Shown here piece after piece: positions 3,097 through 47,791 of a stretch of 64,000 nucleotides of DNA; position 1 is the first letter of the stretch; each line of letters opens with the position of its first letter. Under the pieces are notes generated by a model. That model did no database searches, was not told the origin of the DNA, and saw nothing but the letters and a program-made list of their open reading frames with translations. Origin of the DNA: an uncultured Alphaproteobacteria bacterium. Its GTDB lineage: Bacteria > Pseudomonadota > Alphaproteobacteria > RF32 > CAG-239. The stretch is taken from NCBI GenBank assembly GCA_947588655.1, contig CANPYS010000002.1, positions 11,912 to 75,911 on the forward strand, read 5' to 3'. The translations under genes were made by a program, and so were the position numbers.

Positions 3097-4440
3097 ATGA
3101 CAAATCAAACCATATATGCATTATCCACGGCATGGGGCAAGTCTGGTGTGGCGATTATTCGCATATCGGGGCAAAATGCCAAAGAGGTTGTTCGTTTAAT
3201 GACCAATCTTGAAACAGTGTATTTAAAACCCCGATACGCTTATTTTACGCCCATTTTTCACAATGTTTCACGTGAAACATTAGATAAGGCGTTACTTTTA
3301 TACTTTCAAGCGCCACATTCTTTTACGGGCGAAGATTGTGTTGAAATCCAGTGCCACGGATCAAAAGCGGTTATCACGGCTATTTTAGACAGTTTATCCA
3401 CCCTGCCCGATTTCCGAATGGCAACCCAAGGCGAGTTTACCAAAAGAGCCTTTTTGAACAAAAAAATGGATTTAACAGAGGTTGACGCTCTATTAGATTT
3501 AATTAATTCAGAAACCGAAATACAACGGAAATCCGCGCTTTTGCAGATGGAAGGAAACTTAAAAGAGGTATATAAAAACTGGCGTAGTGAGTTGCTCAAA
3601 ATATATAGCTACTTAGAAGCTTATATAGATTTTCCTGATGAAGAAATACCAAATTCCATAAAAGAATCTATTTTGAACGGTGTATTTAAATTAATTAAAG
3701 AAATAGATGAACATTTTAAAACCGCACATTATAGTGAACGATTACGCGATGGTTTTAGGGTTGTTATTGCTGGACCAACCAACGCCGGCAAATCTAGCCT
3801 TTTGAACTTAATTGCCCAAAGGCAGGCGGCAATCGTATCTGACATTGCAGGCACAACGCGTGACGCTTTAGACATTTATTTAGATGTGGGCGGTTATCCA
3901 GTTATTATAACCGATACGGCGGGTTTAAGGGAGTCTTCGGATAAGATAGAGCAACAAGGCATTGAAATTACAAAAGAAAAAATCAAAGACGCCGACTATA
4001 TTTTAGCCCTTTTTGATGCCTCCAAAGATACGCCGGCGATTTTTAAAAATCTCAAAAAAGAATCTAAAAACAATATATTATATATTGCTAATAAATCCGA
4101 TACTTTAACATTTGAACAGTGTTCAGTATTTGAAAAACAAGGCTGTTTGTTGCTTTCGGCTAAGACCGGAAAAGGGCTTGAAAATTTACTTAAAACACTC
4201 GCAAACCGCATAGAATCAGATTTTTCCGGCGCGGCTTCCCTGCCCTTAACGCGCGCACGTTATCATCAATATTTGCAAAACACGCTCAACGCCTTAAAAG
4301 ACTTTAGCTTTGATAAAGAAATTGAACTTTCGGCGGAAGATATTCGCTTGGCAGCGCGTGAACTTGGCAAAATCACAGGTCAGATTGAAGTAGAAGAAAT
4401 TTTAAATAATATCTTTTCGTCATTTTGTATTGGAAAATAA
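3097..4440 (+). CDS. mnmE: tRNA modification GTPase MnmE (TrmE)
   Basis: 447 aa. G1 motif GPTNAGKSSLLN, G3 DTAGLRE, NKSD G4, C-terminal CIGK tetrapeptide. Followed by mnmG and rsmG. Confidence 0.95.
   Translation: MTNQTIYALSTAWGKSGVAIIRISGQNAKEVVRLMTNLETVYLKPRYAYFTPIFHNVSRETLDKALLLYFQAPHSFTGEDCVEIQCHGSKAVITAILDSLSTLPDFRMATQGEFTKRAFLNKKMDLTEVDALLDLINSETEIQRKSALLQMEGNLKEVYKNWRSELLKIYSYLEAYIDFPDEEIPNSIKESILNGVFKLIKEIDEHFKTAHYSERLRDGFRVVIAGPTNAGKSSLLNLIAQRQAAIVSDIAGTTRDALDIYLDVGGYPVIITDTAGLRESSDKIEQQGIEITKEKIKDADYILALFDASKDTPAIFKNLKKESKNNILYIANKSDTLTFEQCSVFEKQGCLLLSAKTGKGLENLLKTLANRIESDFSGAASLPLTRARYHQYLQNTLNALKDFSFDKEIELSAEDIRLAARELGKITGQIEVEEILNNIFSSFCIGK
3262..3281. promoter_or_regulatory. 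parS: parS centromere-like site (perfect palindrome AATGTTTCACGTGAAACATT) inside mnmE
   Basis: Exact 16-bp core TGTTTCACGTGAAACA matches the ParB-binding consensus; copy 1 of 3 identical copies. Confidence 0.85.
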
Positions 4441-4499
4441 AAAAAGCTTGCAATTTAAAGACATTTTTCTATGATGTGCCTAATTAAAAGGAACTGAAA

Positions 4500-6317
4500 A
4501 TGCAAACAGATAAAGATGTCATAGTTGTTGGCGGCGGTCATGCCGGTTGTGAGGCGGCGGCCGCGGCGGCGCGAACAGGTGCTCAAACGGTTTTAATAAC
4601 GCACAAAATCAGCACCATTGGCGAAATGTCATGCAATCCGGCAATTGGCGGTTTGGGCAAAGGTCATCTTGTGCGTGAAATTGATGCTTTAGACGGACTA
4701 ATGGCGCGCGTGATTGATAAGGCAGGCATTCAGTTTAGAATGCTTAATTCTTCCAAAGGGCCGGCAGTGCGTGGTCCGCGTGCGCAAGCTGATAGGGCTT
4801 TATATAAAAAATATATGCTTGAGGCGCTAAGAGCCGAAAAAAATCTTGAAATTTTAGAAGCCGCGGTTGAGGGTTTGCTCATCAATTCAGATAACAGTGT
4901 TGGCGGTGTCATTTTATCTAACGGACAACAGATTTCGGCAAAGGCGGTTATTTTAACAACAGGCACATTTTTAAACGGCGTGATGTTTGTTGGTCATCAA
5001 ACTTCTGAAGGTGGCAGAATTGGTGACAAATCGTGCAAAGGTATAACACCGTATTTAAATCAGCTTGGGTTAAATTTAGGGCGACTTAAAACAGGCACGC
5101 CCGCGCGATTAAATGGCAAAACAATTCATTGGGACGCGCTTGAAGTGCAATCAGGCGATGAAAACCCCGAGCCATTTTCATACTTAACGGAAAGTTTACC
5201 TCAAAAGCAAATAAACTGTTTCATCACGCACACCAACGAGCGCACACATCAAATTATTCGGGACAATTTTTCCAAATGCGCTTTGTTTTCGGGGCTGATA
5301 AAGGGTGTCGGTCCGCGTTATTGCCCAAGCATTGAGGACAAGCTTATTAAATTTGCGGGCAAAGACAGTCATCAAATTTTCTTAGAGCCTGAGGGTTATG
5401 ATACAGATGTGGTTTATCCAAACGGCATATCCACGTCTTTGCCGGCAGATGTGCAAGACGCGTTTATTCACACCATCAAAGGGCTTGAAGACGTTGAGAT
5501 TTTGCGTTACGCCTATGCCATTGAATACGATTTTGTTGATCCGCAGGAGCTTAACCGTCGGTTAGAACTCAAAAAAGCGCCCAACTTGTTTTTAGCCGGT
5601 CAAATTAACGGCACGACGGGTTATGAAGAGGCGGCGGCGCAAGGTTTGGTAGCGGGTGTCAATGCTGCTTTAAAAGCAATTTCGCCTGAAAAAGAGTTTG
5701 TGATTGACCGTTCAGAGGCTTATATAGGCGTGATGATTGATGATTTAATCAGCAAAGGTGTGGACGAGCCTTATCGTATGTTTACATCGCGTTCTGAATA
5801 CAGGTTATATTTACGCGCGGATAACGCCGATATGCGTTTAACGGAAAAAGGTTATCAAATCGGCTGTGTTGGCGAAAAACGGAACACTGTATTTAAAACG
5901 AAAAAGCAAGATGTTGAAAAGTTAAGAAACTTAGCTCAAACGCTCAAATCAAACGCAATAACTGGTCGCAAAGAAACGCTTTGGCATTTAATGACTTTAA
6001 ATAATGTTTCACGTGAAACATTGTTTAAAACCTTTCCTCAACTTGCTGAATTTTCTGATAAAATTTATGAACAGATTGAAATTGAAGCGCGTTATGAAGG
6101 CTATATGAAGCGCCAACTCGCCGACATTGAAGTTTTCAAAAAAGATGAAAGTCTTAAAATAAGAGAAGACATAGATTATAAAAAAATCGGTGGTTTATCG
6201 CGTGAAATGGTAGATAAACTTAATCGCTTGCGTCCAGAAACAATCGGGGCGGCATCGCGTATTTCAGGGGTCACGCCGGCGGCAATCACGGCGCTTTTGG
6301 GTTATTTGAAAAAATAA
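4500..6317 (+). CDS. mnmG: tRNA uridine 5-carboxymethylaminomethyl modification enzyme MnmG (GidA)
   Basis: 605 aa; N-terminal FAD-binding [14 protein letters not shown]; conserved mnmE-mnmG-rsmG order. Confidence 0.95.
6003..6022. promoter_or_regulatory. parS: parS site (AATGTTTCACGTGAAACATT) inside mnmG
   Basis: Identical 20-bp palindrome; copy 2. Confidence 0.85.
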
Positions 6318-6363
6318 ACCGGAAAGGCGACTTATTTAAAATCGTGTTTATAACTTACAAAGA

Positions 6364-7023
6364 TTGTTTATTAAAGTGGCAAGCCGCGTTATAAATTTTT
6401 TTATGGAAAATTTTATCAAAAAATATAATGTTTCACGTGAAACATTGGCCTCTCTTCAAAGGTATGTAAGCCTTTTGGAAGAATGGCAAAATATGTTTAA
6501 CCTTGTCAGCAAAAACTCGTTACCCGATGTTTGGCAACGTCATATTGCCGATTCGGCGGAACTTTTTCAATATATTGATAAAAAAGCCGGTCTGGTTTAT
6601 GACTTTGGAAGCGGCGCGGGCTTTCCGGCAATTGTTTTAGCGATTATGGCGGCAAAAGAAAAACCCAAACTTAGGTTTTTGCTGATAGAAAGTACCACAA
6701 AAAAAACAGTGTTTTTAAATGCCGTTAAAGAAGCGCTGGTGCTTAAAAATGTATATGTCATCAACGACCGAATTGAAAATTTGAAACTCCAAAAAGCCGA
6801 TTTTATAACCTCGCGCGCCTTAGCGGCGCTTCCCCAACTTTTGGAATATGCCCTGCCCTATACCGAGCTTGAGCGTACAAAGCTGATTTTTCCAAAAGGG
6901 CGCAAATATAGAGGGGAAATAGAAGAGGCCCGAAAGCAATGGTCGTTTACAACAAACGTTTACCGGAACACATCTTCAAATGACGGTGTAATTTTGGTTT
7001 TGGAAGATTTACGGAGAAAATAA
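6364..7023 (+). CDS. rsmG: 16S rRNA (guanine527-N7)-methyltransferase RsmG (GidB)
   Basis: SAM-binding YDFGSGAGFP motif. The likely true start is the ATG at 6403 (MENFIKKYNVSRETL...), the typical alphaproteobacterial GidB N-terminus. Confidence 0.9.
   Translation: MFIKVASRVINFFMENFIKKYNVSRETLASLQRYVSLLEEWQNMFNLVSKNSLPDVWQRHIADSAELFQYIDKKAGLVYDFGSGAGFPAIVLAIMAAKEKPKLRFLLIESTTKKTVFLNAVKEALVLKNVYVINDRIENLKLQKADFITSRALAALPQLLEYALPYTELERTKLIFPKGRKYRGEIEEARKQWSFTTNVYRNTSSNDGVILVLEDLRRK
6427..6446. promoter_or_regulatory. parS: parS site (AATGTTTCACGTGAAACATT) inside rsmG
   Basis: Identical 20-bp palindrome; copy 3. Confidence 0.85.
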
Positions 7024-7791
7024 ATGAAAATTATTGCGGTTGCCAACCGAAAAGGCGGTGTCGGAAAAACAACAACAGCCATAAACATAGCCACAGCCAT
7101 GGCGGCAATTGGCAAAAAAGTTTTGGTGCTTGATTTAGACCCGCAAGGCAACGCCACCACTTCTATGGGTTTGAACAAAAAAACATGCCCTTATTCTTCT
7201 TACGATGTTTTAATTAATGGTGTTGAGCCCTTAAAAGCGGTTAAAACGACAGACATTCCAAACTTTTATATTTTACCGTCTGCCCCTGCCCTTGCCGCCG
7301 CTGAAATTGAAATTGTGAACGCCGCTCAACGCGAATATATTTTAAAACGAATGCTCAAAATGTTGGAAGGGCGCTTTCATTATGTGCTGATAGATTGCCC
7401 GCCTTCGCTCAATTTTATCACAATCAACGCCTTGGTTGCCGCCGATTCGGTGATTGTGCCGCTCCAGTGCGAATTTTTGGCGCTTGAGGGTTTGACTGAT
7501 TTAATTCAAAACATAGACCGAATTAAGAAAAACTTTAACCCGACGCTCAAAGTTCAAGGCATTGTTTTAACAATGTTTGATAAGCGCAACAATTTGAGTC
7601 AAATGGTTGAGGCTGATGTTCGGCGCTACTTTGGCGATTTGGTTTATAAAACCGTTATACCGCGCAGTGTGCGTATATCGGAAGCGCCTTCGCATGGCAA
7701 GCCTGTAATGATTTATGACTTCAAGAGTGTTGGGGCGCAGGCTTACATTCAGTTGGCAAAAGAAGTTTTAACGCGTGAAAAGGAGATATAA
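7024..7791 (+). CDS. parA: Chromosome partitioning ATPase ParA
   Basis: Deviant Walker A KGGVGKTTTA; 255 aa; followed by parB. Confidence 0.93.
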   Translation: MKIIAVANRKGGVGKTTTAINIATAMAAIGKKVLVLDLDPQGNATTSMGLNKKTCPYSSYDVLINGVEPLKAVKTTDIPNFYILPSAPALAAAEIEIVNAAQREYILKRMLKMLEGRFHYVLIDCPPSLNFITINALVAADSVIVPLQCEFLALEGLTDLIQNIDRIKKNFNPTLKVQGIVLTMFDKRNNLSQMVEADVRRYFGDLVYKTVIPRSVRISEAPSHGKPVMIYDFKSVGAQAYIQLAKEVLTREKEI

Positions 7792-7793
7792 AA

Positions 7794-8669
7794 ATGCCGT
7801 CAAATAACAACAAACATGGATTGGGCAGGGGCTTAAATGCGCTTTTCGGGGACGAAAGCTTTAATTTAGACGAGGTTTTAAACGCCGATGACAAAGGCAT
7901 TAAAACGGTATCCATTGAAAAATTGCGCCCTTGTGCTTTTCAACCGCGCAAAAGCTTTGATGAAGAGGCTATAAAATCTTTAGCGCAATCCATAAAAGAG
8001 AAGGGGGTTTTGCAGCCCATTTTGGTACGTCCCAAAAACGGATTATATGAAATTGTGGCGGGTGAACGCCGTTACAGAGCCGCCAAAATGGCAGGGTTAA
8101 TTGAACTGCCTGTTATTGAAAAAGAGCTTAAAGACAACGAGGTTTTAGAAGTAGCACTGGTTGAAAACCTTGTCCGAAAAGATTTACTCCCCTTAGAAGA
8201 GGCGCACGGACTTAATTGTTTGATTAATCAGTTTAATTATACGCAAGAACGCCTTTCGGAAATTGTTGGCAAATCCAGAAGCAACATCACAAACATCTTG
8301 CGTTTGCTAACTTTGCCGGCATCTGTTCAAAAATATTTAGACGAGGGCAAATTAACCTCTGGACATGCGCGCGCCTTGGTTGGGCTTGAAAATGCCGCCG
8401 AGTTAGCCGAGCAAATTATAGGGCAGGGGCTAAGCGTCCGTCAGGTGGAAGAAATTATCAGCAAAATCAAAAAACAGGGCAACAACCCCAAGCCCAAAAA
8501 GCCCGCCATTGTAAAAGATAAGGAATTATGCCAAATTGAGCGCGATTTATCGCAAAAAATTGGAGTTCGGGTTATCATTAAAGCCGGTCAAAATGGGCGA
8601 GGGCGCGTTGTTTTGGAATACAAACAGCTTGCCGAGCTTGAAAATATTATTGATAAGCTTGAAAAATAA
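7794..8669 (+). CDS. parB: Chromosome partitioning protein ParB
   Basis: ParB box GERRYRAA, HTH region and C-terminal dimerisation domain; 291 aa. Confidence 0.93.
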   Translation: MPSNNNKHGLGRGLNALFGDESFNLDEVLNADDKGIKTVSIEKLRPCAFQPRKSFDEEAIKSLAQSIKEKGVLQPILVRPKNGLYEIVAGERRYRAAKMAGLIELPVIEKELKDNEVLEVALVENLVRKDLLPLEEAHGLNCLINQFNYTQERLSEIVGKSRSNITNILRLLTLPASVQKYLDEGKLTSGHARALVGLENAAELAEQIIGQGLSVRQVEEIISKIKKQGNNPKPKKPAIVKDKELCQIERDLSQKIGVRVIIKAGQNGRGRVVLEYKQLAELENIIDKLEK

Positions 8670-8744: not shown

Positions 8745-9298
8745 AAGTCGTTATCGTCATCAGCTGAGCTTTGCAAAATTTCCGAAACAACGTCATAATC
8801 AAAACCGGCGCGGATTAATGTCGCCATATCTTTTTGCCGATTCGCACGGCGGATTTCCTCATCAAAACGAAAAGGCCCAATCTTTTTCTTTTTTGCAAAT
8901 TTGAGCGCCATTTCTTTAACATCATAACCCTGATTTTCTAAAATCTGTTGCGTTAAATCTGCGTTAATGCCCTTTTGACGCAATTTAAGCTCAATATAAC
9001 GCGCGGGCTTGCCGGCGGCGAGGTAATCGCGCGTTTTAAGTTCGGCATAACGCGCGTCATCAAGATAACCCCAATGCTGAAAATCGGCCAAAACTTCTTC
9101 AATCCAGCCCAAAGCCTCGGTTTTATCAAACGAAGGATCAGCGCGCGCATAATCTGAAACGCGCCGCTTTAAAACCTGCCGCAGGTTTTCGGTTGAAGAT
9201 TCAAAGCGCTTCAAATAATAAAGCCCAATGTTTTTAAGCCGAGATTTTGTAATTTTGCGAGGCATTTTGCCGCGATTTTGAATACTTGAATCTTTCAC
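8741..9298 (-). CDS. recX: Recombination regulator RecX
   Basis: 185 aa; three-repeat helical RecX pattern (…LYYLKRFESSTENLRQVLKRR… ARYAELKTRDYL…); start may be the internal ATG (MPRKITK). Confidence 0.75.
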   Translation of the reverse strand: MKDSSIQNRGKMPRKITKSRLKNIGLYYLKRFESSTENLRQVLKRRVSDYARADPSFDKTEALGWIEEVLADFQHWGYLDDARYAELKTRDYLAAGKPARYIELKLRQKGINADLTQQILENQGYDVKEMALKFAKKKKIGPFRFDEEIRRANRQKDMATLIRAGFDYDVVSEILQSSADDDNDF

Positions 9299-21799: not shown

Positions 21800-24709
21800 A
21801 TGCAAAATCATATCTTTAATATTCCGGCAAGCTGTTCTTTTGCAGACACTCTCGCCACGCGCTTTTTGAAAGATATTGAGGATAATCCGCAAAGCTTGTC
21901 GTCGTGTTTGTTTTTGTTGCCAAATCGGCGCTCCGCATTATCTCTTCGCGATGCTTTTGTGCGCCTTTTTGGGACGAAACCCGCTATTTTGCCAAAGATG
22001 ATTCCTATTGCCGATATTGATGAAGACGAGGTTCTGTTTGGTGGCGCCGATAATGCCGATGTGCTTAAAAATCTGCCGCCAGCTATATCTTCAACCGAAA
22101 GGCTCTTTTTGCTTGCTAAGCTCATTAATGCCCGACCAACACAATACGGCTTGCCTGAAATGTCGTATGCGCAAGCGTTAGCGCTTTCTGAAGAACTTTG
22201 CAAACTGATGGATAATGTTTATAATCAGCAGTTAAGTTTTGATAAGCTCCAAGATATTGTGCCGGCGCAATATGCCGTACATTGGCAAGAAACGCTCCGC
22301 TTTTTGAAAATTATCACGCATTGGTGGCCTGAAATTTTGGCGCAAAGAGGTGTGTGCGATGTCGCCCAACGCCGCAACGCCCTTTTAGACGCTCAAGCCG
22401 ATGTTTGGGCACGGCATTTTCCAAAGCATAAAGTTATTGCCGCCGGTATTGAGGCTTGTTTTCCAGGGCTTGTGCGGATTTTGAAAGTTATTGCGCAAAT
22501 GCCTCAAGGCGAAATTTATTTTTATGGACTTGACCGCTTTTTAGATGAAAATTCGTGGCAGATGATTGATGAAAATCATCCACAATATCAGCATAAGCTA
22601 ATATTAGAAGCTTTGAATATTCAGCGCGCAGATGTTACCGATGTCGTCCAAGCGCAAAATTTGCCGCGCGAGCAATTTGTGGCTGAAATTATGCGCCCCG
22701 CCGCCGACACCCTTCGTTGGCAAGAGCTTGCAGGTAAAGAATTGCCGTCAGAGGCTGTTAAAAATCTGCACTGCATCAATTGTTTTGATAGTAGGCAAGA
22801 GGCTTTAAGCATTGCGCTTTTGCTCCGCGAAACCCTAAACACGCCCGAAAAAACCGCCGCTTTGGTCACGACTGATCGGCAATTGGCGCGCCGTGTTTGC
22901 GCTGAAATGAGGCGCTGGAACATTGAAGTTGACGACTCCGCTGGTAAGCCTTTGCACCTTTGCCCGATTGGCATTTATCTGCGCCTTATTCCGAATTTGA
23001 TTGAAACAGATTTTAGCGCCAAGGCAATTTTAGCGCTTGTTAAAAATCCGTTTGTTCGGCTTCAAACTCATCGGGTTGAGTTGTTGCAACAAATTAGGCT
23101 TTGGGAGTATCAAGAACGCAAGCCTGTTTTTGATATTTCGCAAAAAAATGCTCTGCCCGAGCCTTTGTGGCTTAAGACTTTAAAAGAAAATTACGCGCCG
23201 TTCGCCGCGCTTTTTAAAGAAAAAACGGCCGATTTTAAAACTCTTTTGACAGCACATCTCAAACTTGCCGAATCGCTTGCGGCTGATACGGAAAAATCAG
23301 GGGCGCAAAATTTGTGGCAAGGCGATGACGGCCGTATGGCGGCACAGTGGCTGAGTGAAATATTAGAAAAAGCTCATGAAATTGGCGCGATTGAAACAAG
23401 TCAATACGCTTTTGTTTTGACGGCTTTGCTTTCAACACAAACCGTGCGCCCGATTTATGGCACGCATCCGCGGCTTAAAATTTTAGGGCCGATTGAGGCG
23501 CGTTTTAATCAGTTTGACCGCGTGATTATTGGCGGCTTAAACGAAGGCGTTTGGCCGATGTTGCCTTCTAGCGATGGTTGGCTTTCGCGTCCGATGAAAA
23601 AAGAGTTTGGGCTGATGATGCCTGAAACCGCTATTGGCGCCGCCGCCGCTGATTTTGCCCGTCTGCTCTCTGCGCCAGAAGTTTATTTAACACGCGCGGA
23701 GCGTTGTGGCGGTACGCCGGCGAATAAGTCGCGTTGGTGGCTGAGGCTTGAGACAGTTTTAGAAGCTTATGGTCTGCCCAAAGACGCTCTTTCTGAAAAT
23801 GTTTATTATCCGTTGGCGCTTGCTTTGGATAACCCCATTAAAACCGAAACCCCCAAGCGGCCTATGCCCAAGCCAAGCATTCAACATCGCCCGAAAGAAC
23901 TTTCAGCAAGCGCGGTTGAAGTTTTGATGCGCGATCCTTATGAAATTTATGCCCGATATATTTTGAAATTGTATCCGCTTGAAGATATTGATTCTTCTCT
24001 TTCCATGCGCGAGTATGGTTCTGTTGTTCACAAGGTTTTGGAGCGTTTTAATCGGGCTTATCCTGAAAAATTGCCCGAAAACGCCGAAGATATTATGCTT
24101 TCCATGGGGCTTAAACTTTTTGATGAAATGGGCGTTGAACCCGAAAGCAAAGCCTTTTGGTTGCCACGGTTTGAAAAGACTGTTCGCTTTATTGCTCATC
24201 ATGAAAAAATTTATCGGCAAAACATTGTTAAAGTTGTGCCAGAAGTAGCCGGCTCGTTTTCGTTTGATACTAAAAACGGCAAATTTACCATTAAGGCGCG
24301 CGCTGATCGGCTTGATTTGACAACCGAAGGAAAAATTAATATTATTGATTACAAAACAGGCAAAATCCGCACAAAAGCCGAGGTTTTTAAAGGCTATGCG
24401 CCACAGTTGCCGATTGAGGGGCTTATTGTTCGTGAAGGCGGTTTTCAAACAAATGAATTTTCGTTTCAAACAACTGATGTCGGACGTTTGATTTATTGGC
24501 AACTTGGTGAAAAAACATCTGAAATTGACGCTGATGAAAAAAATTTGCTCAACGACACTTTAACGCGCTTGAAAATGTTAATTGAACCATTTGCAGATTT
24601 TGACACACCTTATCCGGCGCGACCAAACCCGAAACATTTGCTTGAATACGCCGATTATGAACATTTGGCGCGCGTGCAAGAATGGGCAAGCGGAGGCGAT
24701 GATGAATAA
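21800..24709 (+). CDS. addB: Double-strand break repair protein AddB (alphaproteobacterial type)
   Basis: 969 aa, immediately upstream of and overlapping addA; C-terminal PD-(D/E)xK-like nuclease region (…IIDYKTGK…). Confidence 0.8.
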   Translation: MQNHIFNIPASCSFADTLATRFLKDIEDNPQSLSSCLFLLPNRRSALSLRDAFVRLFGTKPAILPKMIPIADIDEDEVLFGGADNADVLKNLPPAISSTERLFLLAKLINARPTQYGLPEMSYAQALALSEELCKLMDNVYNQQLSFDKLQDIVPAQYAVHWQETLRFLKIITHWWPEILAQRGVCDVAQRRNALLDAQADVWARHFPKHKVIAAGIEACFPGLVRILKVIAQMPQGEIYFYGLDRFLDENSWQMIDENHPQYQHKLILEALNIQRADVTDVVQAQNLPREQFVAEIMRPAADTLRWQELAGKELPSEAVKNLHCINCFDSRQEALSIALLLRETLNTPEKTAALVTTDRQLARRVCAEMRRWNIEVDDSAGKPLHLCPIGIYLRLIPNLIETDFSAKAILALVKNPFVRLQTHRVELLQQIRLWEYQERKPVFDISQKNALPEPLWLKTLKENYAPFAALFKEKTADFKTLLTAHLKLAESLAADTEKSGAQNLWQGDDGRMAAQWLSEILEKAHEIGAIETSQYAFVLTALLSTQTVRPIYGTHPRLKILGPIEARFNQFDRVIIGGLNEGVWPMLPSSDGWLSRPMKKEFGLMMPETAIGAAAADFARLLSAPEVYLTRAERCGGTPANKSRWWLRLETVLEAYGLPKDALSENVYYPLALALDNPIKTETPKRPMPKPSIQHRPKELSASAVEVLMRDPYEIYARYILKLYPLEDIDSSLSMREYGSVVHKVLERFNRAYPEKLPENAEDIMLSMGLKLFDEMGVEPESKAFWLPRFEKTVRFIAHHEKIYRQNIVKVVPEVAGSFSFDTKNGKFTIKARADRLDLTTEGKINIIDYKTGKIRTKAEVFKGYAPQLPIEGLIVREGGFQTNEFSFQTTDVGRLIYWQLGEKTSEIDADEKNLLNDTLTRLKMLIEPFADFDTPYPARPNPKHLLEYADYEHLARVQEWASGGDDE

Positions 24710-27700
24710 TATTGAGCAAGAAACAAACGCTTTAAGTCAAATTGCGACAAGGCAACAACAAAAAGCCGCTAATCCTAAGCTTTCTGTTTGGGTGCAAGCT
24801 TCCGCCGGCACAGGCAAGACAAAAGTTCTGTCTGACCGCGTGTTGCGTCTTTTGTTGCAAAATGTTAATCCGTCACGAATTTTGTGCCTAACTTATACCA
24901 AAGCCGCCGCCGTTGAAATGAACGCGCGTATTGCGAATCGGCTTTCACACTGGGCTGTCGCGCCACAAAAAGATCTTATAAAAGACTTGCAATCTTTGGT
25001 TTCAGAAAATATGTCTGAAAAAGAATGCCAACAACTTGTTAAACGCGCACGCATTTTGTTTGCCTTGCTTTTAGATGTTCCCGGTGGGCTTAAAATTCAG
25101 ACAATTCATAGTTTTTGCCAAGAAATTTTAAAGCGCTTTCCAATAGAATCGGGCGTTTCACCTTATTTTAACGTTTTGGACGACCGCGCCGCCAAAGAAG
25201 CCCTTAACACCGCCGCCACAGAACTTTTAAGCCGTATGGAAACCGCGCCACATACGCCGGAAGCACAGGCAATGGCGTTTTTGACGACGCAGATTAAAGA
25301 ATTTTCTTTTAATAAATTAATGTCGCTTTTGATTGAAAAACGCAGTGCTTTTGCCGATATTTTAAGCGCTTATGATTGTATTCAAGACTTTGAAAAAGCT
25401 CTGATGACTCGGCTCGGACTTAAGCAAATTAAATCTTTGGCTGAGGCTGAAAAAGATTTTTATCAGACGCTTGATATAGAAAAATTGCGCCAAATCGCCG
25501 ATGTTTTGGGGCAAAGCGCCTCTGTAAACGATAAAAAAGCCGCGCGCATTATATTAGAACAAACTAATTTAGATATTGCTAAATTAGAAAATGCTAAATT
25601 AGATATTGCTAATTTAGGAAATGCTAAATTAGGAAATACTAATTTAGAAAACGCTAAATTAGAAAATACTAAATTAGGAAATGCTAAATTAGAAAACGCT
25701 AATTTAGAGAATGCTAATTTAGGAAATGCTAATTTAGGAAATACTAAATTAGAAAACGCTAATTTAGAAAACGCTAATTTAGAAAATGCTAATTTAGAAA
25801 ATGCTAAATTAGAAAATGCTAATTTAGGAAATACTAATTTAGAAAACACTAATTTAGAAAACACTAATTTAGAAAACACTAATTTAGAAAATGCTAATTT
25901 AGAAAATGCTAATTTAGAGAATGCTAATTTAGAAAATGCTAATCAATTTGATTTTGACACGTTTAAAGGCGTCTTTTTAACGGGCGATGATGAAATTCGC
26001 GATGCGATAGCCACAAAATCGTTTGTTAAAAAATTTCCGTTCGTGGGCGAATTTTTGGATAAACTGGCGCAAGATGTTTTGGCATTTGTAATGTATCTTA
26101 AACGGCTTAATTTGTTTTTATCTACGCGCGCGGTAATGATTATTGCCGGTACATTAGGAAATGCTTATACAGCCTTTAAGCGCCAAAACGCCGAGCTTGA
26201 TTATGAAGACCTTATCCACTTAACAAAGCGTCTGCTTGAAAATGAGGGCGCGGCATCATGGGTGCTATATAAACTTGACGGCGGCATTAGTCATATTTTG
26301 ATTGACGAGGCGCAAGATACTTCGCCCCAACAATGGGCTATTATCAAGGCTTTAAGCGCCGAGTTTTTTGACGGCGCAGGGCAGTCTGATGAAACGCGAA
26401 CAGTTTTTGCCGTCGGCGATCGGAAGCAATCTATTTATAGTTTTCAGGGCGCAGATCCTGCCGCTTTTGATGAAATGTCAAAATATTTTGCTCAAAAAAG
26501 CACCTCTTTTGAAAAAGTGCGGCTTGATGTTTCGTTTAGGTCAACGGCGGCGGTTTTGGAAACGGTTAATCATTTGTTTGATATGCCAACAGCTCAATCC
26601 GGCGTGGTTTTAGAAGATGAAAAAGTGTCGCACCTGCCCTTTAGGCTCGGGCAAGGCGGCCGCGTTGAAATTTGGCCCTTGATTGAACCCGAAGATGATG
26701 AAGAAGATGTTTGGTATCCGCCTGTAGAGCGCGCGCACAAGCCTTTAGCGCGAACACGGCTCGCCGAAAAAATTGCGCAAACTATTCAGCAAATGGTGGC
26801 GCGGCAAGAGGTTTTGGAATCAAAAGGGCGGGCGCTCCAATATAGCGATTTTATGGTGCTGGTGCAACGGCGCAACGCTTTTATGGACGACTTTATCCGC
26901 GCGTGCAAGCAAATTGGCGTGAATATTGCCGGCGCCGATAAAATTAAGCTTTTAGAGCATATTGCCGTTCAAGATTTGATTTCTTTGGCAAAGTTTTTGC
27001 TTTTGCCTGAAGATGATTTGAGCTTGGCGGAAGTCTTAAAATCGCCTTTGTTCGGGCTTGACGATGACGACTTAATGCAACTTTGCATTGACCGTGGCGC
27101 AACCGCATTGTGGCAAAGGTTGAAAACAAATTCAAAATATGCTCCCGCTACTGAAACGCTTTCTGCGCTTTTAGCCAAGGCAGATTATATTCGTCCGTTT
27201 GAGCTTTTTTCATACGTTTTAAGCGTTTATGGCGGGCGGCAAAAATTTGTGGCGCGCTTGGGCAAAGAAACCGAGGACGCCTTAGATGAATTTATGAATT
27301 TGACGCTTGATTTTGAGCGTGAACATACACCCTCGCTTCAGGCTTTTTTGCAATGGCTTGAAGAAGACGATGTTGAAATTAAGCGCGAAACAGAACAACC
27401 CCAAGCCAATGCTGTGCGCATTATGACGGTTCATGGTTCAAAAGGCTTGCAAGCGCCTGTCGTTATTTTGCCTGATACCGTGCGTGTGCCAAACATTAAG
27501 CGAGAGGCGGCGCTTTTGGTTGAAGATAATCAGCGCGCTTATTTTCCGCTTAATGCCGATGGTTATGAAGATATTTGCAATGCACTTTATGAAACCGAAA
27601 AGCAAAAAGAATATGACGAATATCGGCGACTTTTATACGTTGCCTTAACGCGCGCGGAAGATAGGCTTTATGTTTGCGGCTATAAATCTAAAAACAAAAT

Positions 27701-28433
27701 TAATGAGCAATGCTGGTATAATTTGTGCGCAGAAACGCTTAAAACTTGGGGCAAAGAAAAAGACGGTAATTTGGTTTATGAATCGGAACAACTCGTTGCG
27801 CCCAAAACAGCCTTAAATCAGCTGGAAGAAACGCCTCAAATTAAGCTCCCTTCATGGACTTTGGAAGACGCTCCTCAAGCCGAGCCTTTGGCGCGTCCTT
27901 ATACGCCCTCAAAGCCTGATGATGACGAAATTGCCGCAGCATCGCCTTTAAATGATGAGGGTTTTTATTATAAGCGCGGGTTGCTTATTCATAAGTTGTT
28001 GCAGTTGTTGCCTTCTGAAATTGACAAGGCGGCGCGCGAAAATTTAATGCGAATCTTTTTTAAGAAAAACGCCCCTGAACTTTCGGAAAAAACTCAAAAT
28101 CAGCTTGTGTCTGAAATTTCCGCCTTGTTTGATAATCCCTCGTTTGCCTTTATTTTTGGCGCTTGTTCGCAAGCCGAAGTACCTATTATTGGGCGCGTGG
28201 AAAACAAAATTGTTTCTGCGCAAATTGACCGTCTGATTGTTCTTAATGACAGGGTTGTTGTGGTTGATTTCAAAACAAATCGTCCTGCCGCGCAAGACAT
28301 TGCCCAAGTGCCGGCGGTTTATAAAAATCAGCTTTCAACTTATCAAAAACTTGTGGCGCAAATTTATCCCGACAGGCCTGTTGAAGGCTACATTTTGTGG
28401 ACAAATACCGGCGATTTGATGAAAGTGATTTAA
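24582..28433 (+). CDS. addA: Double-strand break repair helicase/nuclease AddA, carrying a ~130-aa pentapeptide-repeat insertion
   Basis: UvrD/Rep motif I (QASAGTGKTKVLSDRVLRLL), motif II (ILIDEAQDTSP), C-terminal RecB-type nuclease (…VVVDFKTNRP…). True start probably ATG 24699 (MMNNIEQ), overlapping the addB stop. Residues ~330-465 are (N/K)L(E/G/D)(N/I)(A/T) repeats. Confidence 0.88.
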   Translation: MNHLQILTHLIRRDQTRNICLNTPIMNIWRACKNGQAEAMMNNIEQETNALSQIATRQQQKAANPKLSVWVQASAGTGKTKVLSDRVLRLLLQNVNPSRILCLTYTKAAAVEMNARIANRLSHWAVAPQKDLIKDLQSLVSENMSEKECQQLVKRARILFALLLDVPGGLKIQTIHSFCQEILKRFPIESGVSPYFNVLDDRAAKEALNTAATELLSRMETAPHTPEAQAMAFLTTQIKEFSFNKLMSLLIEKRSAFADILSAYDCIQDFEKALMTRLGLKQIKSLAEAEKDFYQTLDIEKLRQIADVLGQSASVNDKKAARIILEQTNLDIAKLENAKLDIANLGNAKLGNTNLENAKLENTKLGNAKLENANLENANLGNANLGNTKLENANLENANLENANLENAKLENANLGNTNLENTNLENTNLENTNLENANLENANLENANLENANQFDFDTFKGVFLTGDDEIRDAIATKSFVKKFPFVGEFLDKLAQDVLAFVMYLKRLNLFLSTRAVMIIAGTLGNAYTAFKRQNAELDYEDLIHLTKRLLENEGAASWVLYKLDGGISHILIDEAQDTSPQQWAIIKALSAEFFDGAGQSDETRTVFAVGDRKQSIYSFQGADPAAFDEMSKYFAQKSTSFEKVRLDVSFRSTAAVLETVNHLFDMPTAQSGVVLEDEKVSHLPFRLGQGGRVEIWPLIEPEDDEEDVWYPPVERAHKPLARTRLAEKIAQTIQQMVARQEVLESKGRALQYSDFMVLVQRRNAFMDDFIRACKQIGVNIAGADKIKLLEHIAVQDLISLAKFLLLPEDDLSLAEVLKSPLFGLDDDDLMQLCIDRGATALWQRLKTNSKYAPATETLSALLAKADYIRPFELFSYVLSVYGGRQKFVARLGKETEDALDEFMNLTLDFEREHTPSLQAFLQWLEEDDVEIKRETEQPQANAVRIMTVHGSKGLQAPVVILPDTVRVPNIKREAALLVEDNQRAYFPLNADGYEDICNALYETEKQKEYDEYRRLLYVALTRAEDRLYVCGYKSKNKINEQCWYNLCAETLKTWGKEKDGNLVYESEQLVAPKTALNQLEETPQIKLPSWTLEDAPQAEPLARPYTPSKPDDDEIAAASPLNDEGFYYKRGLLIHKLLQLLPSEIDKAARENLMRIFFKKNAPELSEKTQNQLVSEISALFDNPSFAFIFGACSQAEVPIIGRVENKIVSAQIDRLIVLNDRVVVVDFKTNRPAAQDIAQVPAVYKNQLSTYQKLVAQIYPDRPVEGYILWTNTGDLMKVI
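25563..25940 (+). repeat. 15-bp tandem minisatellite (~25 units of aatttagaaaatgct and variants), in frame within addA
   Basis: Direct reading: actaatttagatattgct aaattagaaaatgct aaattagatattgct aatttaggaaatgct … aatttagaaaatgct. Confidence 0.92.
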
Positions 28434-33547: not shown

Positions 33548-35224
33548 CTAGTAAACAGGACGCTGATCCAACAAGCCGCACCAACGCTCCACTTCGTCTA
33601 AATCAATATAACCCTTTAACATACGTTCAAGCGCCGCATCACGCAACGGCCGACCGTCAAGTTCACTTACCCAATAGTCAATGGCACGTTTGGTATCGCC
33701 GCTTATCATCAACTGCAAAAACATCGCGTCTGGCAAAATAATTTCAGGCACAGACAAGCGTCCGTTAAAGCCCTTGTAGCCACACGCCTTGCACCCTGGG
33801 CCACGCACATATGTATTTTCAATGCCAAAGTCGCCCAAGGCTGTTTTTAAGCGTTCAAACGAGGGGTCTTGCATGCGCTGCTTAACCGAAACACGACAAT
33901 GCGGGCAAAGCCTTCTAAACAAACGTTGCGAGATAAGCCCTTTCATCAATTCAGGATCTGCAAGCATATAAGGCTGAACACCCATATCGCGCAGACGGGT
34001 AATAATCGCCGGCGCCGAGTTGGCGTGCAACGTTGTCCACACGCCGTGACCAGAAAGCGCGCCCTTAAAGGTTAATTCTGCGGCGGAAAGCGAACGAATT
34101 TCACCGACCATCATCACATCAGGGTCAGAACGCAAGGCGGCGTTCAAAGCTTTTGTAAATTCGCCCTCTTTTTCTTCTTCAGTGTTGGCGTTCGTCACAG
34201 GCATTTGTCGCGCACCCGGGATTGGGTACTCCGGCGGATCTTCCACTGTTAAAAGGTTGATTTCATAGTTCTTTTCTTGCAAAAGCTTAATCATATTTCT
34301 TTGCAAGGTCGTTGATTTACCGGAGCCCGTCGGACCTGCAATAATGTTTAAGCCAACCGGCACGGCGCGTAAGCGATAAAACAAATTTTCTTCACGCTCG
34401 CCAAAGCCCAAAGCACGCAAGTCCGAACTTCCGTCAGGGTTGTCATCGGCGTACAGAAGACGCATAACCAAATATTGCGAACCAAAAGCAATTGGGTTAA
34501 ATTGTAAACGAATAGCCAAAACGTTGTGTGGCAACATCAAGCGACCGTTTGAACCACGCAACGGCGTTTCGCCTAATTTTTGCGCGCCCTGAAACTCGTT
34601 CTGCGCATAGTTTGAGTCTGAAATATCGGCAGATGCAAACGCGGCACGCACAAACGCCTCGCCCCATTCTTTGTTGTATTCCATTTGCCGAACCATCATA
34701 CCGTTGATTCTGAACATCACAAGCGTTGAATCAGCCACAACAATATGCACGTCGGACACCTTTTGCACAGATGCGCGCGATACAATATTGATGAAGTCAA
34801 TCTGCATTTGCATCTGGTCAAGGTTTTCGCCCTCAATGTCCGTTAAACCGATACCGCGCTCGGCATAAGCATAAATGGCGCTGATTTCGTTTTGCGAAAC
34901 ATAATTTGGCGGATTTATCGGCAGTTTGCGGCGCTTGATGGTCTTTTCAAAGTTATAAACCAAACCGTCAAAACGGTGTTCTTTTGAAACCAAATATGTG
35001 CCGTCTGAAAACAACGCCAACAGGCGGCGCGTTTCATCGCTGATTTGAATATCAGGGTTGCTCGGCAGTGTGATAAGCTTGTTGCCTGCGCCAAAAAGCT
35101 TTTCTAAGATATTAACCTTATGCGTCTGCTCAGTAGATGTTTCAAGCAAATAAGAACCGGAAGAAGGCGTCTCGGTTTTGGCGTCTTGCTGATTGGGCGA
35201 AGTATTTTCCTTTTTATCGGCCAT
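33548..35224 (-). CDS. Type IVb pilus assembly ATPase (GspE/PilB/PilQ-R64/BfpD family)
   Basis: Walker A GPTGSGKSTTL, Asp box LLTVEDPPEYPIPG, Walker B DVMMVGEIR, His box SGHGVWTTLHANSA, tetracysteine CPHC…CKAC; 558 aa. Confidence 0.88.
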   Translation of the reverse strand: MADKKENTSPNQQDAKTETPSSGSYLLETSTEQTHKVNILEKLFGAGNKLITLPSNPDIQISDETRRLLALFSDGTYLVSKEHRFDGLVYNFEKTIKRRKLPINPPNYVSQNEISAIYAYAERGIGLTDIEGENLDQMQMQIDFINIVSRASVQKVSDVHIVVADSTLVMFRINGMMVRQMEYNKEWGEAFVRAAFASADISDSNYAQNEFQGAQKLGETPLRGSNGRLMLPHNVLAIRLQFNPIAFGSQYLVMRLLYADDNPDGSSDLRALGFGEREENLFYRLRAVPVGLNIIAGPTGSGKSTTLQRNMIKLLQEKNYEINLLTVEDPPEYPIPGARQMPVTNANTEEEKEGEFTKALNAALRSDPDVMMVGEIRSLSAAELTFKGALSGHGVWTTLHANSAPAIITRLRDMGVQPYMLADPELMKGLISQRLFRRLCPHCRVSVKQRMQDPSFERLKTALGDFGIENTYVRGPGCKACGYKGFNGRLSVPEIILPDAMFLQLMISGDTKRAIDYWVSELDGRPLRDAALERMLKGYIDLDEVERWCGLLDQRPVY

Positions 35225-38072: not shown

Positions 38073-39725
38073 CTAAAGTTTCATACGCGATTCCGGCATT
38101 AAGGGTGATTCCAAAACCACCGGCGTCAACATAATAACCAAAATACTGCGTGTTTTTTCAGCTGTGGCGGTACCGCCCAAAATTGAATTTTCAGCCGAGC
38201 CCGTACCTGTCTTATTCACAGAGTTTTCAACACGCTCATAACCGCTCAAAATAAGCGTTTCGCCTGATGTTAAAGCAACTTCCTGCGTAAAACCGCGCGT
38301 TTCAATAATCGGGTTTTGAATGTATTGACCGCTATTCGGATTTTCCGGATCGCTTGAACCGCCTAAGTCAACCTTTTCAAGCGCAATCAAGTCAGAAAGC
38401 GTAAGGTTAAACATCATCATCATACGACCATGCTCCAAAATGCGGGGCAAAACGTCAAGCGTGAAACCTGTTTCAATTTCTTCCGTTTCGGTGGAAAGAT
38501 CATAATAACTGCCGTCCGAACCCGAGTTTGTTTTGGTAATTTCAGAAATGTAGTTTTGTGTCTGAATAACTTGAATCGGCGCGGGCTTGTTGTTCAAGGT
38601 TGTCACCGTACCGCTCGTAATTAAGTTCGTGGTGCCTTGCTCTGAAAGCGCTTGCAAAACGGCGTTAATGTTCCAATCGCCCGAAACAATGTTCATAGAA
38701 AGCGTGTTCGGGACTTCAGCACCCAAGCCACCCGCACCGGCAATACCGACGTTACGAATCGCATTTTTAGAGCTTGCAAACGCCGCGTTTAAGTCTAAAC
38801 CATACTGGTCGCTATCTGTTATATTAACTTGCAAGACTTTAACACTAATTGCCACTTGGCGCGAAAGTCTGATGTTTTGCTCGTGGATAAACTTCGCCGC
38901 CTTGCGAATATCCATCGGCGTACCCGTTAAGGTAATTGTGCCGTTAGATTGGTCGGTTGTCATTGTCGCGCCCTTGCTGATTAAAGACTTTAAGGAGCTT
39001 TCAATGTTTGACCACAAATCAATAGAAATGTTGGAGCTTAAAGAAACAGACGACGAACCGCCACTTCCTTCTGTGGACGAGCCACCAACGTTAACAGACA
39101 ACGACGGCTTGGTTGGCAACGAATATAGCACAAATGTTTTGGTGATGTATTTATAAAACGTGATTTGTTTCTTTTCATACTTCCACCAAATGCCAAAACG
39201 ATTGCTCACTTCATCAAGCAAGCCGCTTAAAGGCCCTTTATATGAGAGGAGCATTTTATCGCTTTCTGTCCATTGTGCGCCAATCGTTTCCAAACTGGGC
39301 TGATTGTTATCCGCAACACGAATCGCATCTTGCTCTAAGTCATTTTCATAGCGCACGGACAATGATGTGATTTTATTAATCATATCGCCAATTTCATAAA
39401 GCGAAATCGGGCGGTTGCTGATTAAAGTAATGCCGTCCGGCCCTTCTAAGTAACTTGGCAAAGGCAAGCCCTCGTATTCAACCTCGCTTGTATCGCCAAG
39501 CCAAATATCGTTTTTAACCCGCACCACATCATTCGTGGCAACGGGCATGGGCGTTTTTGCCTCTTCTTTTAAACGCACCGTATTTTCAACCTCGCGCTCA
39601 ATGGTCGCGTCCATATCGGTTGAGATGGAGCAGGCGGCCAAACCCGTTAAAGCCGCACCCAAGGTTAAACAAACAGCCTTATTCATACGCATTTTCATCC
39701 TCCATCGTTTCAACAACCAAGACAC
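38073..39725 (-). CDS. Outer-membrane lipoprotein secretin (PilN-R64 / BfpB type)
   Basis: Lipobox LTGLAAC after an n/h region. C-terminal secretin signature …GETLILSGYERVENS…KTRSILVIMLTPVVL; glycine/serine-rich central region; ~530-550 aa like R64 PilN/BfpB. Confidence 0.8.
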   Translation of the reverse strand: MSWLLKRWRMKMRMNKAVCLTLGAALTGLAACSISTDMDATIEREVENTVRLKEEAKTPMPVATNDVVRVKNDIWLGDTSEVEYEGLPLPSYLEGPDGITLISNRPISLYEIGDMINKITSLSVRYENDLEQDAIRVADNNQPSLETIGAQWTESDKMLLSYKGPLSGLLDEVSNRFGIWWKYEKKQITFYKYITKTFVLYSLPTKPSLSVNVGGSSTEGSGGSSSVSLSSNISIDLWSNIESSLKSLISKGATMTTDQSNGTITLTGTPMDIRKAAKFIHEQNIRLSRQVAISVKVLQVNITDSDQYGLDLNAAFASSKNAIRNVGIAGAGGLGAEVPNTLSMNIVSGDWNINAVLQALSEQGTTNLITSGTVTTLNNKPAPIQVIQTQNYISEITKTNSGSDGSYYDLSTETEEIETGFTLDVLPRILEHGRMMMMFNLTLSDLIALEKVDLGGSSDPENPNSGQYIQNPIIETRGFTQEVALTSGETLILSGYERVENSVNKTGTGSAENSILGGTATAEKTRSILVIMLTPVVLESPLMPESRMKL

Positions 39726-43126: not shown

Positions 43127-43627
43127 TTAAGCTTTATCCACAGGAAGCTCAATATATTCTACGCCAGCTTCCTTAAACATCTCGGCAGAATATTGGAGCT
43201 TGTCGCGCCAAGTGCCTTTGGGCGTGTTTTCGGTTATTTCAACCGCATTGGTAATAACGGTTTTAATGCCTGCCTGAATGATAGCGCGTGCGCAATCGGT
43301 GCAAGGCGCATGTGTGGCATACATCACGCAGCCTTTTAACGATGTGCCTGTTAAGCATGCATTATAAATAGCGTTGCGTTCGGCATGTTCAAAAAAGTCA
43401 TATTTTGTAGGGCGTTCCAACCGTTCGGGCTTGTTATCATCTACACCGCGCACCAAACCATTGTAACCCGTGGCGCGAATCTCACGATCAGGGCCAACAA
43501 CAACCGCGCCCGTTTTGGTTGACGTGTCTTTAGACCACGACGCCACCAAAAATGCCATTTCCATAAAACGCTTGTTCCACTTGTCCGAAAACATACTTTT
43601 CTCCCTTTGAAAACAAATTTTATCCAC
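43127..43627 (-). CDS. dCMP/cytidine deaminase family protein (ComEB-like)
   Basis: Zinc-binding HAERNAI … PCTDCARAI motifs; probable start at 43594. Confidence 0.8.
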   Translation of the reverse strand: MDKICFQREKSMFSDKWNKRFMEMAFLVASWSKDTSTKTGAVVVGPDREIRATGYNGLVRGVDDNKPERLERPTKYDFFEHAERNAIYNACLTGTSLKGCVMYATHAPCTDCARAIIQAGIKTVITNAVEITENTPKGTWRDKLQYSAEMFKEAGVEYIELPVDKA

Positions 43628-43710
43628 ATATTATTAAAAAAAAACTAAAATTTAATCTTTCTCTTGACAAGCGCAAAAAAATAGTCCAGTTTATAAAAGT
43701 TATATTTTGA

Positions 43711-45033
<1,323 letters not shown>

Positions 45034-47380: not shown

Positions 47381-47770
47381 AAGAGGCGGCCGGACAGCTG
47401 CGCGGCAAAAAGTAAGATTTGACTGTGAGGAAAGTCCGGGCTTTATGGAAACAAGACACCGGATAACTTCCGGCCGGAGGAATCCGAGGGAAAGCGCCAC
47501 AGAAAATTACCGCCGAAAATTTTTTCGGTAAGGTTGAAAAGGCGAGGTAAAAGCTCACCGCTGGGGCAGAAATGTCACAGGCAAGGCAAGCCCTGTCTAA
47601 AGCAAGACCAAGTTAGGGTAAGGTTTATCCTTAGTGGAGCGTTTTCACTCCGGCCCAGGAGGTAGGTCGCAAGAGCGGTTTGGCAACAATCCGCCAAGAT
47701 GAATAGCTGTCGCGGATATCTTTGCTTGCAAAGCAATATCTGTCACAAAACCCGGCTTATAGGTCGCCTT
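47381..47770 (+). ncRNA. rnpB: RNase P RNA (bacterial type A)
   Basis: Universally conserved GAGGAAAGUCCGGGCU (P4 5' strand), …AAGGUUGAAAAGGCGAGGUAAAAGCUCACCG… (P10-12 region), 3' …ACAAAACCCGGCUUAUAGGUCGCCU pairing with the 5' AAGAGGCGGCC (P1). Confidence 0.85.
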
Positions 47771-47791
47771 AAATTTTGAATTGGAGGATAG

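Follow-up and report, generated by a model that had tools for sequence, protein, structure and literature searches.

Three identical predicted parS palindromes within mnmE, mnmG and rsmG upstream of parAB in an uncultured alphaproteobacterium, and the apparent imprint of such sites on protein sequence

Intragenic parS sites near parAB have already been documented in Caulobacter, Pseudomonas and Mycobacterium, and the locus described here is a new case in an uncultured lineage. It comprises three identical 20-bp palindromes within mnmE, mnmG and rsmG, just upstream of parA and parB, in a 64,000-nucleotide stretch of DNA (hereafter the window) of an uncultured alphaproteobacterium (GenBank assembly GCA_947588655.1, contig CANPYS010000002.1). 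In Caulobacter crescentus (Toro 2008; Tran et al. 2018, PMC5815017), also an alphaproteobacterium, the 16-bp parS sites are likewise intragenic and clustered within a few kilobases at parAB; their host genes are essential or of high fitness cost, the origin is about 8 kb away, and some 10 kb of the surrounding DNA is covered by ParB (PMC5815017). Five to seven sites of graded affinity are found there, whereas the window has three predicted ones, perfect and identical, and only a clade of uncultured bacteria has sites at mnmE codon 56 and mnmG codon 502. Lin and Grossman reportedly described, in 1998, a parS of Bacillus subtilis inside spo0J. In Pseudomonas aeruginosa, nine of ten parS sites are intragenic (parS1-3 and 5-10), and these have been mutated synonymously in order to spare the proteins (Jecz et al. 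2015, PMC4368675). Both organisms resemble the window in carrying centromere sites in coding sequence; in both, however, the sites are spread over larger distances or genome-wide, and many Pseudomonas sites are off consensus, while in the window they occupy three consecutive genes of an operon that ends in parAB. Mycobacterium has one parS within parA and another upstream of gidB, the alternative name of rsmG (Casart et al. 2008, PMC2346475). There, too, the perfect palindrome TGTTTCACGTGAAACA stands beside gidB-parA-parB, with one copy intragenic, but the gidB-proximal mycobacterial site lies upstream of the gene and overlaps a promoter, whereas in the window and in most sampled Alphaproteobacteria it is found within the first 15 codons of rsmG.

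The 20-mer AATGTTTCACGTGAAACATT has exactly three exact copies in the whole 64-kb window (Table 1), and no further copy with three or fewer mismatches occurs elsewhere in it. Dinucleotide-preserving shuffles gave 0.01 expected matches and none of 100 shuffles attained three, which rules out chance or composition as the origin of the copies. The parS consensus TGTTNCACGTGAAACA, a 16-bp inverted repeat, is matched perfectly by the TGTTTCACGTGAAACA core of each copy; the consensus and the perfect palindrome have been described for B. subtilis and M. tuberculosis (PMC2346475). One additional core match, with three mismatches at 9291, is within chance, and no perfect core is present in the 57.5 kb of the window outside the three-site region. 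The GTTTCAC half-site, enriched in P. aeruginosa, is not enriched in the window; chance alone would give 6.9 matches in all, and four lie apart from the full sites. The three sites span 3.2 kb, with spacings of 2.7 kb and 0.4 kb (the mnmG-rsmG distance, 424 bp, is unusually short), and lie 0.6-3.8 kb upstream of parA-parB. Genes were called from open reading frames and NCBIfam equivalog models; mnmE, mnmG, rsmG, parA and parB are five consecutive genes, all on the plus strand. The first-pass annotation of this DNA had reported three identical 20-mers with a ParB-consensus core, placed inside these three genes just upstream of parAB and encoding NVSRETL in each, and these points were confirmed by exact matching, by identity to the published parS, by the gene calls and by the translations. 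The palindromes are very probably chromosomal parS sites and putative loading sites for the ParB encoded 1.3 kb downstream of the cluster.

Table 1. Predicted parS sites, their host genes and the adjacent partition genes in the window
Feature	Position	Strand	Details
parS-1	3262..3281	.	perfect 20-bp palindrome, core 3264-3279; mnmE codons 56-62 (NVSRETL), VSRET at mnmE nt 167
parS-2	6003..6022	.	perfect 20-bp palindrome; mnmG codons 502-508 (NVSRETL)
parS-3	6427..6446	.	perfect 20-bp palindrome; 5' end of rsmG, codons 9-15 from ATG 6404
mnmE (tRNA modification GTPase), host of parS-1	3097..4440	+	NCBIfam NF003661, 546.9 bits vs cutoff 380
mnmG/gidA, host of parS-2	4500..6317	+	TIGR00136, 828.9 bits vs cutoff 524.85
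rsmG/gidB, host of parS-3	6404..7023	+	TIGR00138, 141.1 bits vs cutoff 99.5
parA, partition ATPase	7024..7791	+	KGGVGKTT deviant Walker A; ParA-superfamily NCBIfam matches, each below its own equivalog cutoff
parB, parS-binding CTPase clamp	7794..8669	+	TIGR00180 parB_part, 188.7 bits vs cutoff 58.45

The partition proteins agree with this assignment. The best PDB match of the window ParB is Caulobacter ParB (6t1f, E = 3e-56), with the GERRYRAA, GKSR and GHAR motifs aligned, and its box II GERRYRAA aligns with GERRWRAA in Caulobacter and GERRFRAA in B. subtilis. The arginine patch of the GERRxRA box II is the binding site for cytidine triphosphate (CTP). Mutations in box II of ParB impair spreading (PMC5815017). 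At the specificity positions (Caulobacter numbering) the protein has R173 and G201 and, at the two variable ones, I and T; ParBs that bind parS invariably have R173 and G201, while Noc has Q173, K179, K184 and R201 (Jalal et al., 10.1101/724823). The window ParB is therefore assigned by its residues to the parS type, and its DNA binding is predicted on the same grounds. The Noc system of Firmicutes also employs a ParB-family protein and a related 16-bp palindrome, the Noc-binding site (NBS), and the NCBIfam model on which the window ParB scores highest is in fact that of Noc, although below its cutoff (223.4 bits against 315). NBS differs from parS in having A at position 1 and C at position 6 (10.1101/724823); the DNA in the window is canonical parS and the protein carries R/I/T/G, so a Noc-NBS nucleoid occlusion system was ruled out. 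The gene directly before parB is taken as a chromosomal parA because of its superfamily matches together with that place. Found together in the window are thus a consensus palindrome, a parS-type ParB with its GERRxRA box, a partner ParA and, as set out below, conservation at the DNA level. As for the third host gene, the rsmG open frame reaches a TTG at 6364 and has an alternative start at ATG 6404; the latter is probably the true start, since in the closest relative (L090 in the comparison below) the gene starts 26 nt before the core.

Each of the three sites is read as GTT TCA CGT GAA ACA, that is VSRET, in the contexts HNVSRETLDKA in MnmE and YNVSRETLASL in RsmG, with NVSRETL likewise in MnmG. 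That the frame is common to all three is almost inevitable. The core has a stop in frame 1 (TGT TTC ACG TGA) and the palindrome is identical on both strands, so that a perfect intragenic parS can encode only VSRET or FHVK[H/Q]; the prior for three sites in one frame is about 1 in 4. The N and the L of the heptapeptide arise because AA and TT flank the core. Given the DNA, the common heptapeptide is not very surprising, and what is non-trivial is the presence of three perfect sites, their location and their conservation.

Conservation was assessed in 88 related loci of up to 21 kb (designated by L numbers), 80 of them around mnmE from species-representative genomes and eight from contigs encoding chosen homologues; the loci were scanned for parS and their genes mapped by tblastn. 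The MnmE of the window is found on a few short metagenomic contigs, and its 120 best homologue clusters are proteins of alphaproteobacterial metagenome-assembled genomes with 60-68% identity, plus one at 99%. The window belongs to a clade of uncultured alphaproteobacteria that is apparently animal-associated. Sites at orthologous codons were found in 15 clade relatives (53-68% MnmE identity), and the codons flanking the conserved sites have diverged freely. In the related loci parS is seen almost solely in the mnmE-rsmG interval. Across all loci there are 86 perfect cores, 61 of them in long open frames as VSRET, 10 intergenic and 15 in the FHVK frame. The 15 stop-free FHVK readings lie mostly upstream of the gene alignments and look like 5' extensions, and they were not counted as intragenic sites. 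In the clade relatives L087-L094, one to three extra genes (PHP-domain and/or HD/HDOD-domain) stand between mnmG and rsmG, where the window has an 86-bp spacer only (6318-6403).

The rsmG site has the widest distribution. Among the sampled alphaproteobacterial loci with rsmG and the mnmE-mnmG-rsmG-parA-parB synteny, most have a parS at this N-terminal RsmG column, among them loci labeled Pelagibacteraceae, Rhodospirillales, Parvibaculum, Hyphomicrobiales, Dongiaceae and others; by this distribution the site appears to be old as well as widespread among the Alphaproteobacteria sampled. VSRET in RsmG is encoded by GTTTCACGTGAAAC in all 54 peptides of the 88 loci (51 at the N-terminal column and 3 at a second column), where 0.21 would be expected from local codon usage. 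The genomes concerned range from 28 to 68% in guanine-cytosine (GC) content, and in those of 56-68% GC the per-site probability of the parS codons is 1e-7 to 2e-3, mostly below 1e-4. In L038 rsmG has no internal site; the peptide there is VSDHD, and a parS with one mismatch lies in the spacer just upstream. The first-pass annotation had taken VSRET as native to the RsmG N-terminus of alphaproteobacteria, a view that is not sustained: because GTTTCACGTGAAAC is used even at 64-68% GC, and because L038 without an internal site has VSDHD, the motif is not native to the protein but reflects an old parS, whose imprint it is. The segment aligns with 'SLSPRQL' in the N-terminal segment of B. subtilis GidB.

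The mnmG site is restricted to the clade. Every clade member with a complete mnmG has a perfect or one-mismatch site at this column (nt 1505-1547), the core being perfect in L007, L010, L011, L087-L091 and L094 and carrying one mismatch in L012, L092 and L093. Outside the clade unrelated residues occupy the column, such as DVDVARL, VNMSKI or IGLRELL, and solved homologues align here, within the C-terminal region, with many gaps and little conservation. The exact parS codons are used in 13 of 13 MnmG VSRET peptides, with 0.12 expected. From these alignments the site appears specific to this clade of uncultured alphaproteobacteria and would have been gained in the clade ancestor. In the window, the mnmG parS is embedded in a longer near-palindrome at 5996-6029, TTTAAAt-AATGTTTCACGTGAAACATT-gTTTAAA, which as RNA would form a 15-bp stem (-14.2 kcal/mol, z = -5.5); the extension may be coincidental in AT-rich coding sequence.

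The mnmE site is perfect in the window only. Ten relatives have a degraded copy, with one or two mismatches of eight kinds: one mismatch in L007 (GAATCA), L008 (GTTACA), L011 (CACATG), L087 and L088 (TCC), L089 (ACT), L090 (CCGTTT), L091 (CGA) and L092 (ACC), and two in L093. No site is present at the column in L009, L010, L012, L013, L014 and L094. Since several of the single changes are synonymous, VSRET has been kept as a fossil in some MnmE relatives. Among the 120 homologue clusters the column reads VSRET in 45, VSHET in 22, VSRES in 6, VTRET in 6, ASRET in 3 and VSQET in 3, besides scattered variants and unrelated peptides; outside the clade it is a variable glycine-rich turn (PETGAAL or NTSELI, for example). 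Within the N-terminal domain, the site occupies a variable segment prone to indels, whose counterparts in the alignment are 'FKDADGSVLD' in Escherichia coli and 'HEN--GEDVD' in Thermotoga. Judged from these sequences, the mnmE site is the younger and less constrained one and seems to have arisen within the clade. Most alphaproteobacteria outside the clade have a second parS in the mnmE-mnmG spacer, and the window has no site there.

These distributions bear on the possibility that VSRET, or NVSRETL, has a function as a protein motif in all three enzymes, the DNA identity following from codon bias and the likeness to parS being incidental. The persistence of VSRET at the MnmE column over DNA that has drifted at synonymous positions (TCC, CGA, ACT, ACC), its presence there in the 45 of 120 clusters and the nearly always hydrophobic residue that follows it would fit such a motif. 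The codons are nevertheless invariant in RsmG and MnmG even at 64-68% GC, neither the MnmE and MnmG orthologues of bacteria outside the clade nor the homologues with solved structures (E. coli, Thermotoga, Aquifex and B. subtilis) have the peptide, and across lineages VSRET occurs at differing positions, always with parS DNA; a protein motif is for these reasons extremely unlikely. With the parS codons in 54 of 54 RsmG and 13 of 13 MnmG peptides against expectations of about 0.2 and 0.1, the constraint is attributed to the DNA, and VSRET is an imprint of the site. The peptide itself seems dispensable, because orthologues without the site have unrelated residues in MnmE and MnmG and because all three positions lie in variable, indel-prone segments; that these segments are poorly conserved in the solved homologues fits a tolerance of the sites where the protein is permissive. 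The proposal of the first-pass annotation that a DNA-binding site shapes the protein sequence is thereby upheld. Its suggestion of recruitment for centromere function in MnmE and MnmG agrees with the unrelated peptides at these columns in orthologues that lack the site.

The palindromes might instead act as mRNA hairpins or as operators, for instance for a CACGTG-binding factor, that tune the mnmE-mnmG-rsmG-parAB operon and have no centromere role. Each site does fold as an 8-15 bp mRNA hairpin (-7.5 to -14.2 kcal/mol with 15-nt flanks, z = -2.6 to -5.5; -5.9 kcal/mol for the bare 20-mer), and repression of neighboring promoters by ParB-parS has been proposed or reported elsewhere (PMC2346475; PMC5521831). 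A hairpin is, however, automatic for any palindrome; the exact 16-bp sequence is conserved, compensatory stem changes were not seen in relatives, sites of the same sequence are intergenic in many of them, and no other candidate binding protein was identified. Such a role in place of parS is accordingly considered very unlikely, and a regulatory side-effect of ParB binding would be compatible with parS function without replacing it. A scan for promoters and terminators around the sites gave counts at the level of the shuffles and was uninformative.

It may also be asked whether the three 20-mers are recent copies, spread by gene conversion or as a small mobile repeat, and not independently maintained. 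Of the 29 loci with at least two perfect cores, only the window has the identical 20-mer at every site, and at the mnmG column the relatives have GATG..CAAT where the window has AATG..CATT. On the other hand, all three positions are at orthologous codons in relatives of 57-68% MnmE identity, and the sites are therefore old; identity among the three ends at 20 bp, with no common flank; and AA-core-TT is the most frequent of the extended forms (27 of 86 sites), which holds even in L072 with its 60% GC, and at this frequency three identical sites have a chance of about 3%. Twenty base pairs is also very short for homologous recombination. Recent copying is hardly credible on this evidence, and independently maintained parS sites are preferred. 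The uniform 20-bp form might reflect a ParB that reads bases beyond the 16-bp core.

For the parS interpretation, a working mechanism can be proposed on the basis of what has been described for ParABS nucleation, CTP clamping and sliding (PMC5815017; also PMC7053999 and PMC8367383). A ParB dimer would recognize each 16-bp core via its helix-turn-helix domain, then bind CTP, close as a clamp and slide onto the flanking DNA, the three sites nucleating a single partition complex roughly over the mnmE-parB operon. ParA would move this complex, so that the origin region is segregated, and the complex would probably also load SMC. Placement of the sites in housekeeping genes might guard against their loss by deletion, and parAB expression could be subject to feedback from ParB bound 25 nt into rsmG.

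Several points weigh against this interpretation or narrow it. Only four of seven MnmE VSRET peptides keep the 14-mer of parS codons, and the degraded mnmE sites of relatives suggest that this site may be redundant or just marginally selected. The MnmE peptide can outlive the perfect site, and VSRET is thus tolerated or mildly favored there at the protein level. The restriction of the sites to this region was assessed within 64 kb of the genome. For this organism ParB occupancy, function and a segregation role are predicted ones, and origin proximity, as proposed in the first-pass annotation, is inferred from the known rule for parS clusters and from synteny.

Within the window itself, GC skew is flat and uninformative for oriC. 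The window as a whole has more DnaA-box matches than expected, and they form small clusters at 653-926 (weak) and 43134-43956, the latter flanking deaminase and enolase genes and not dnaA. The window begins inside rho, and the 440-bp AT-rich spacer between the divergent rho and coaE (499-938) has DnaA-box-like 9-mers at 700, 824 and 918, the last one perfect, and a TGTGGAT at about 655; this spacer could be oriC or merely hold promoters.

Independent in-frame VSRET parS sites recur at other codons of the same genes, at about residue 479 of MnmG (L072:12940, L085:12801) and about residue 121 of RsmG (L016:14042, L019:14046, L033:13628). As these belong to unrelated alphaproteobacterial lineages, parS appears to have been recruited repeatedly into mnmG and rsmG. 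Two of these loci, L016 (a 1.5-Mb contig labeled Halopseudomonas aestusnigri, a gammaproteobacterium) and L019 (Kiloniella sp., an alphaproteobacterium), are nearly the same in layout, in their parS sets and at the RsmG N-terminus, and one of the two taxonomic labels is probably wrong. Where a parS with an A before it stands immediately ahead of a gene, the DNA reads ATG TTT CAC GTG AAA CA in a stop-free frame, which yields 'MFHVKH/Q' N-termini (L030:11300, L041:11325, L014:2132, L072:13402 and others); this effect is likely a systematic source of mis-called start codons near parAB.

We tentatively suggest, as a conjecture that may well prove wrong, that intragenic parS sites in general leave a recognizable and datable protein footprint, namely VSRET inside genes and an artefactual MFHVKH/Q N-terminus when the site is just upstream. 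The rsmG site would then be a very old dual-coding element, the loss of intergenic sites would have been accompanied, time and again, by recruitment of new ones into variable loops of the three genes, and the peptide would outlive the DNA, as VSHET, VSRES and VTRET in MnmE might illustrate. If this were true, the gain, loss and turnover of bacterial centromeres could be mined from protein databases alone. The pairing of VSRET with parS was not found in the literature covered by a limited search, and the generality of the imprint has possibly been reported already. For annotation, VSRET in RsmG should not be taken as a catalytic or structural motif. The result places the predicted partition complex and ParB loading sites of an uncultured alphaproteobacterium known only from metagenomes, and offers a clean, quantifiable case in which a DNA-binding site overrides codon choice and fixes amino acids in unrelated proteins, of use for teaching or as a benchmark for dual coding; the current understanding of ParABS is left unchanged.

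Other features of the window were noted in passing. A cluster on the minus strand at 32-42 kb, presumably for a Tad or type IV pilus-like system, includes genes for a secretin (38073-39725) and a T2SSE-type secretion ATPase (33548-35224); several of the neighbors have no Pfam match. The sole Rfam match in the window at the gathering threshold is a bacterial class A RNase P RNA at 47382-47775 (268.8 bits). Pentapeptide repeats occur at the C-terminus of a DnaQ-like RNase_T exonuclease (1502-2266; residues 177-215) and as an insertion at about residues 378-455 of an AddA-like UvrD helicase (24582-28433), and the fusion of such repeats to enzymes of these two kinds is unusual.

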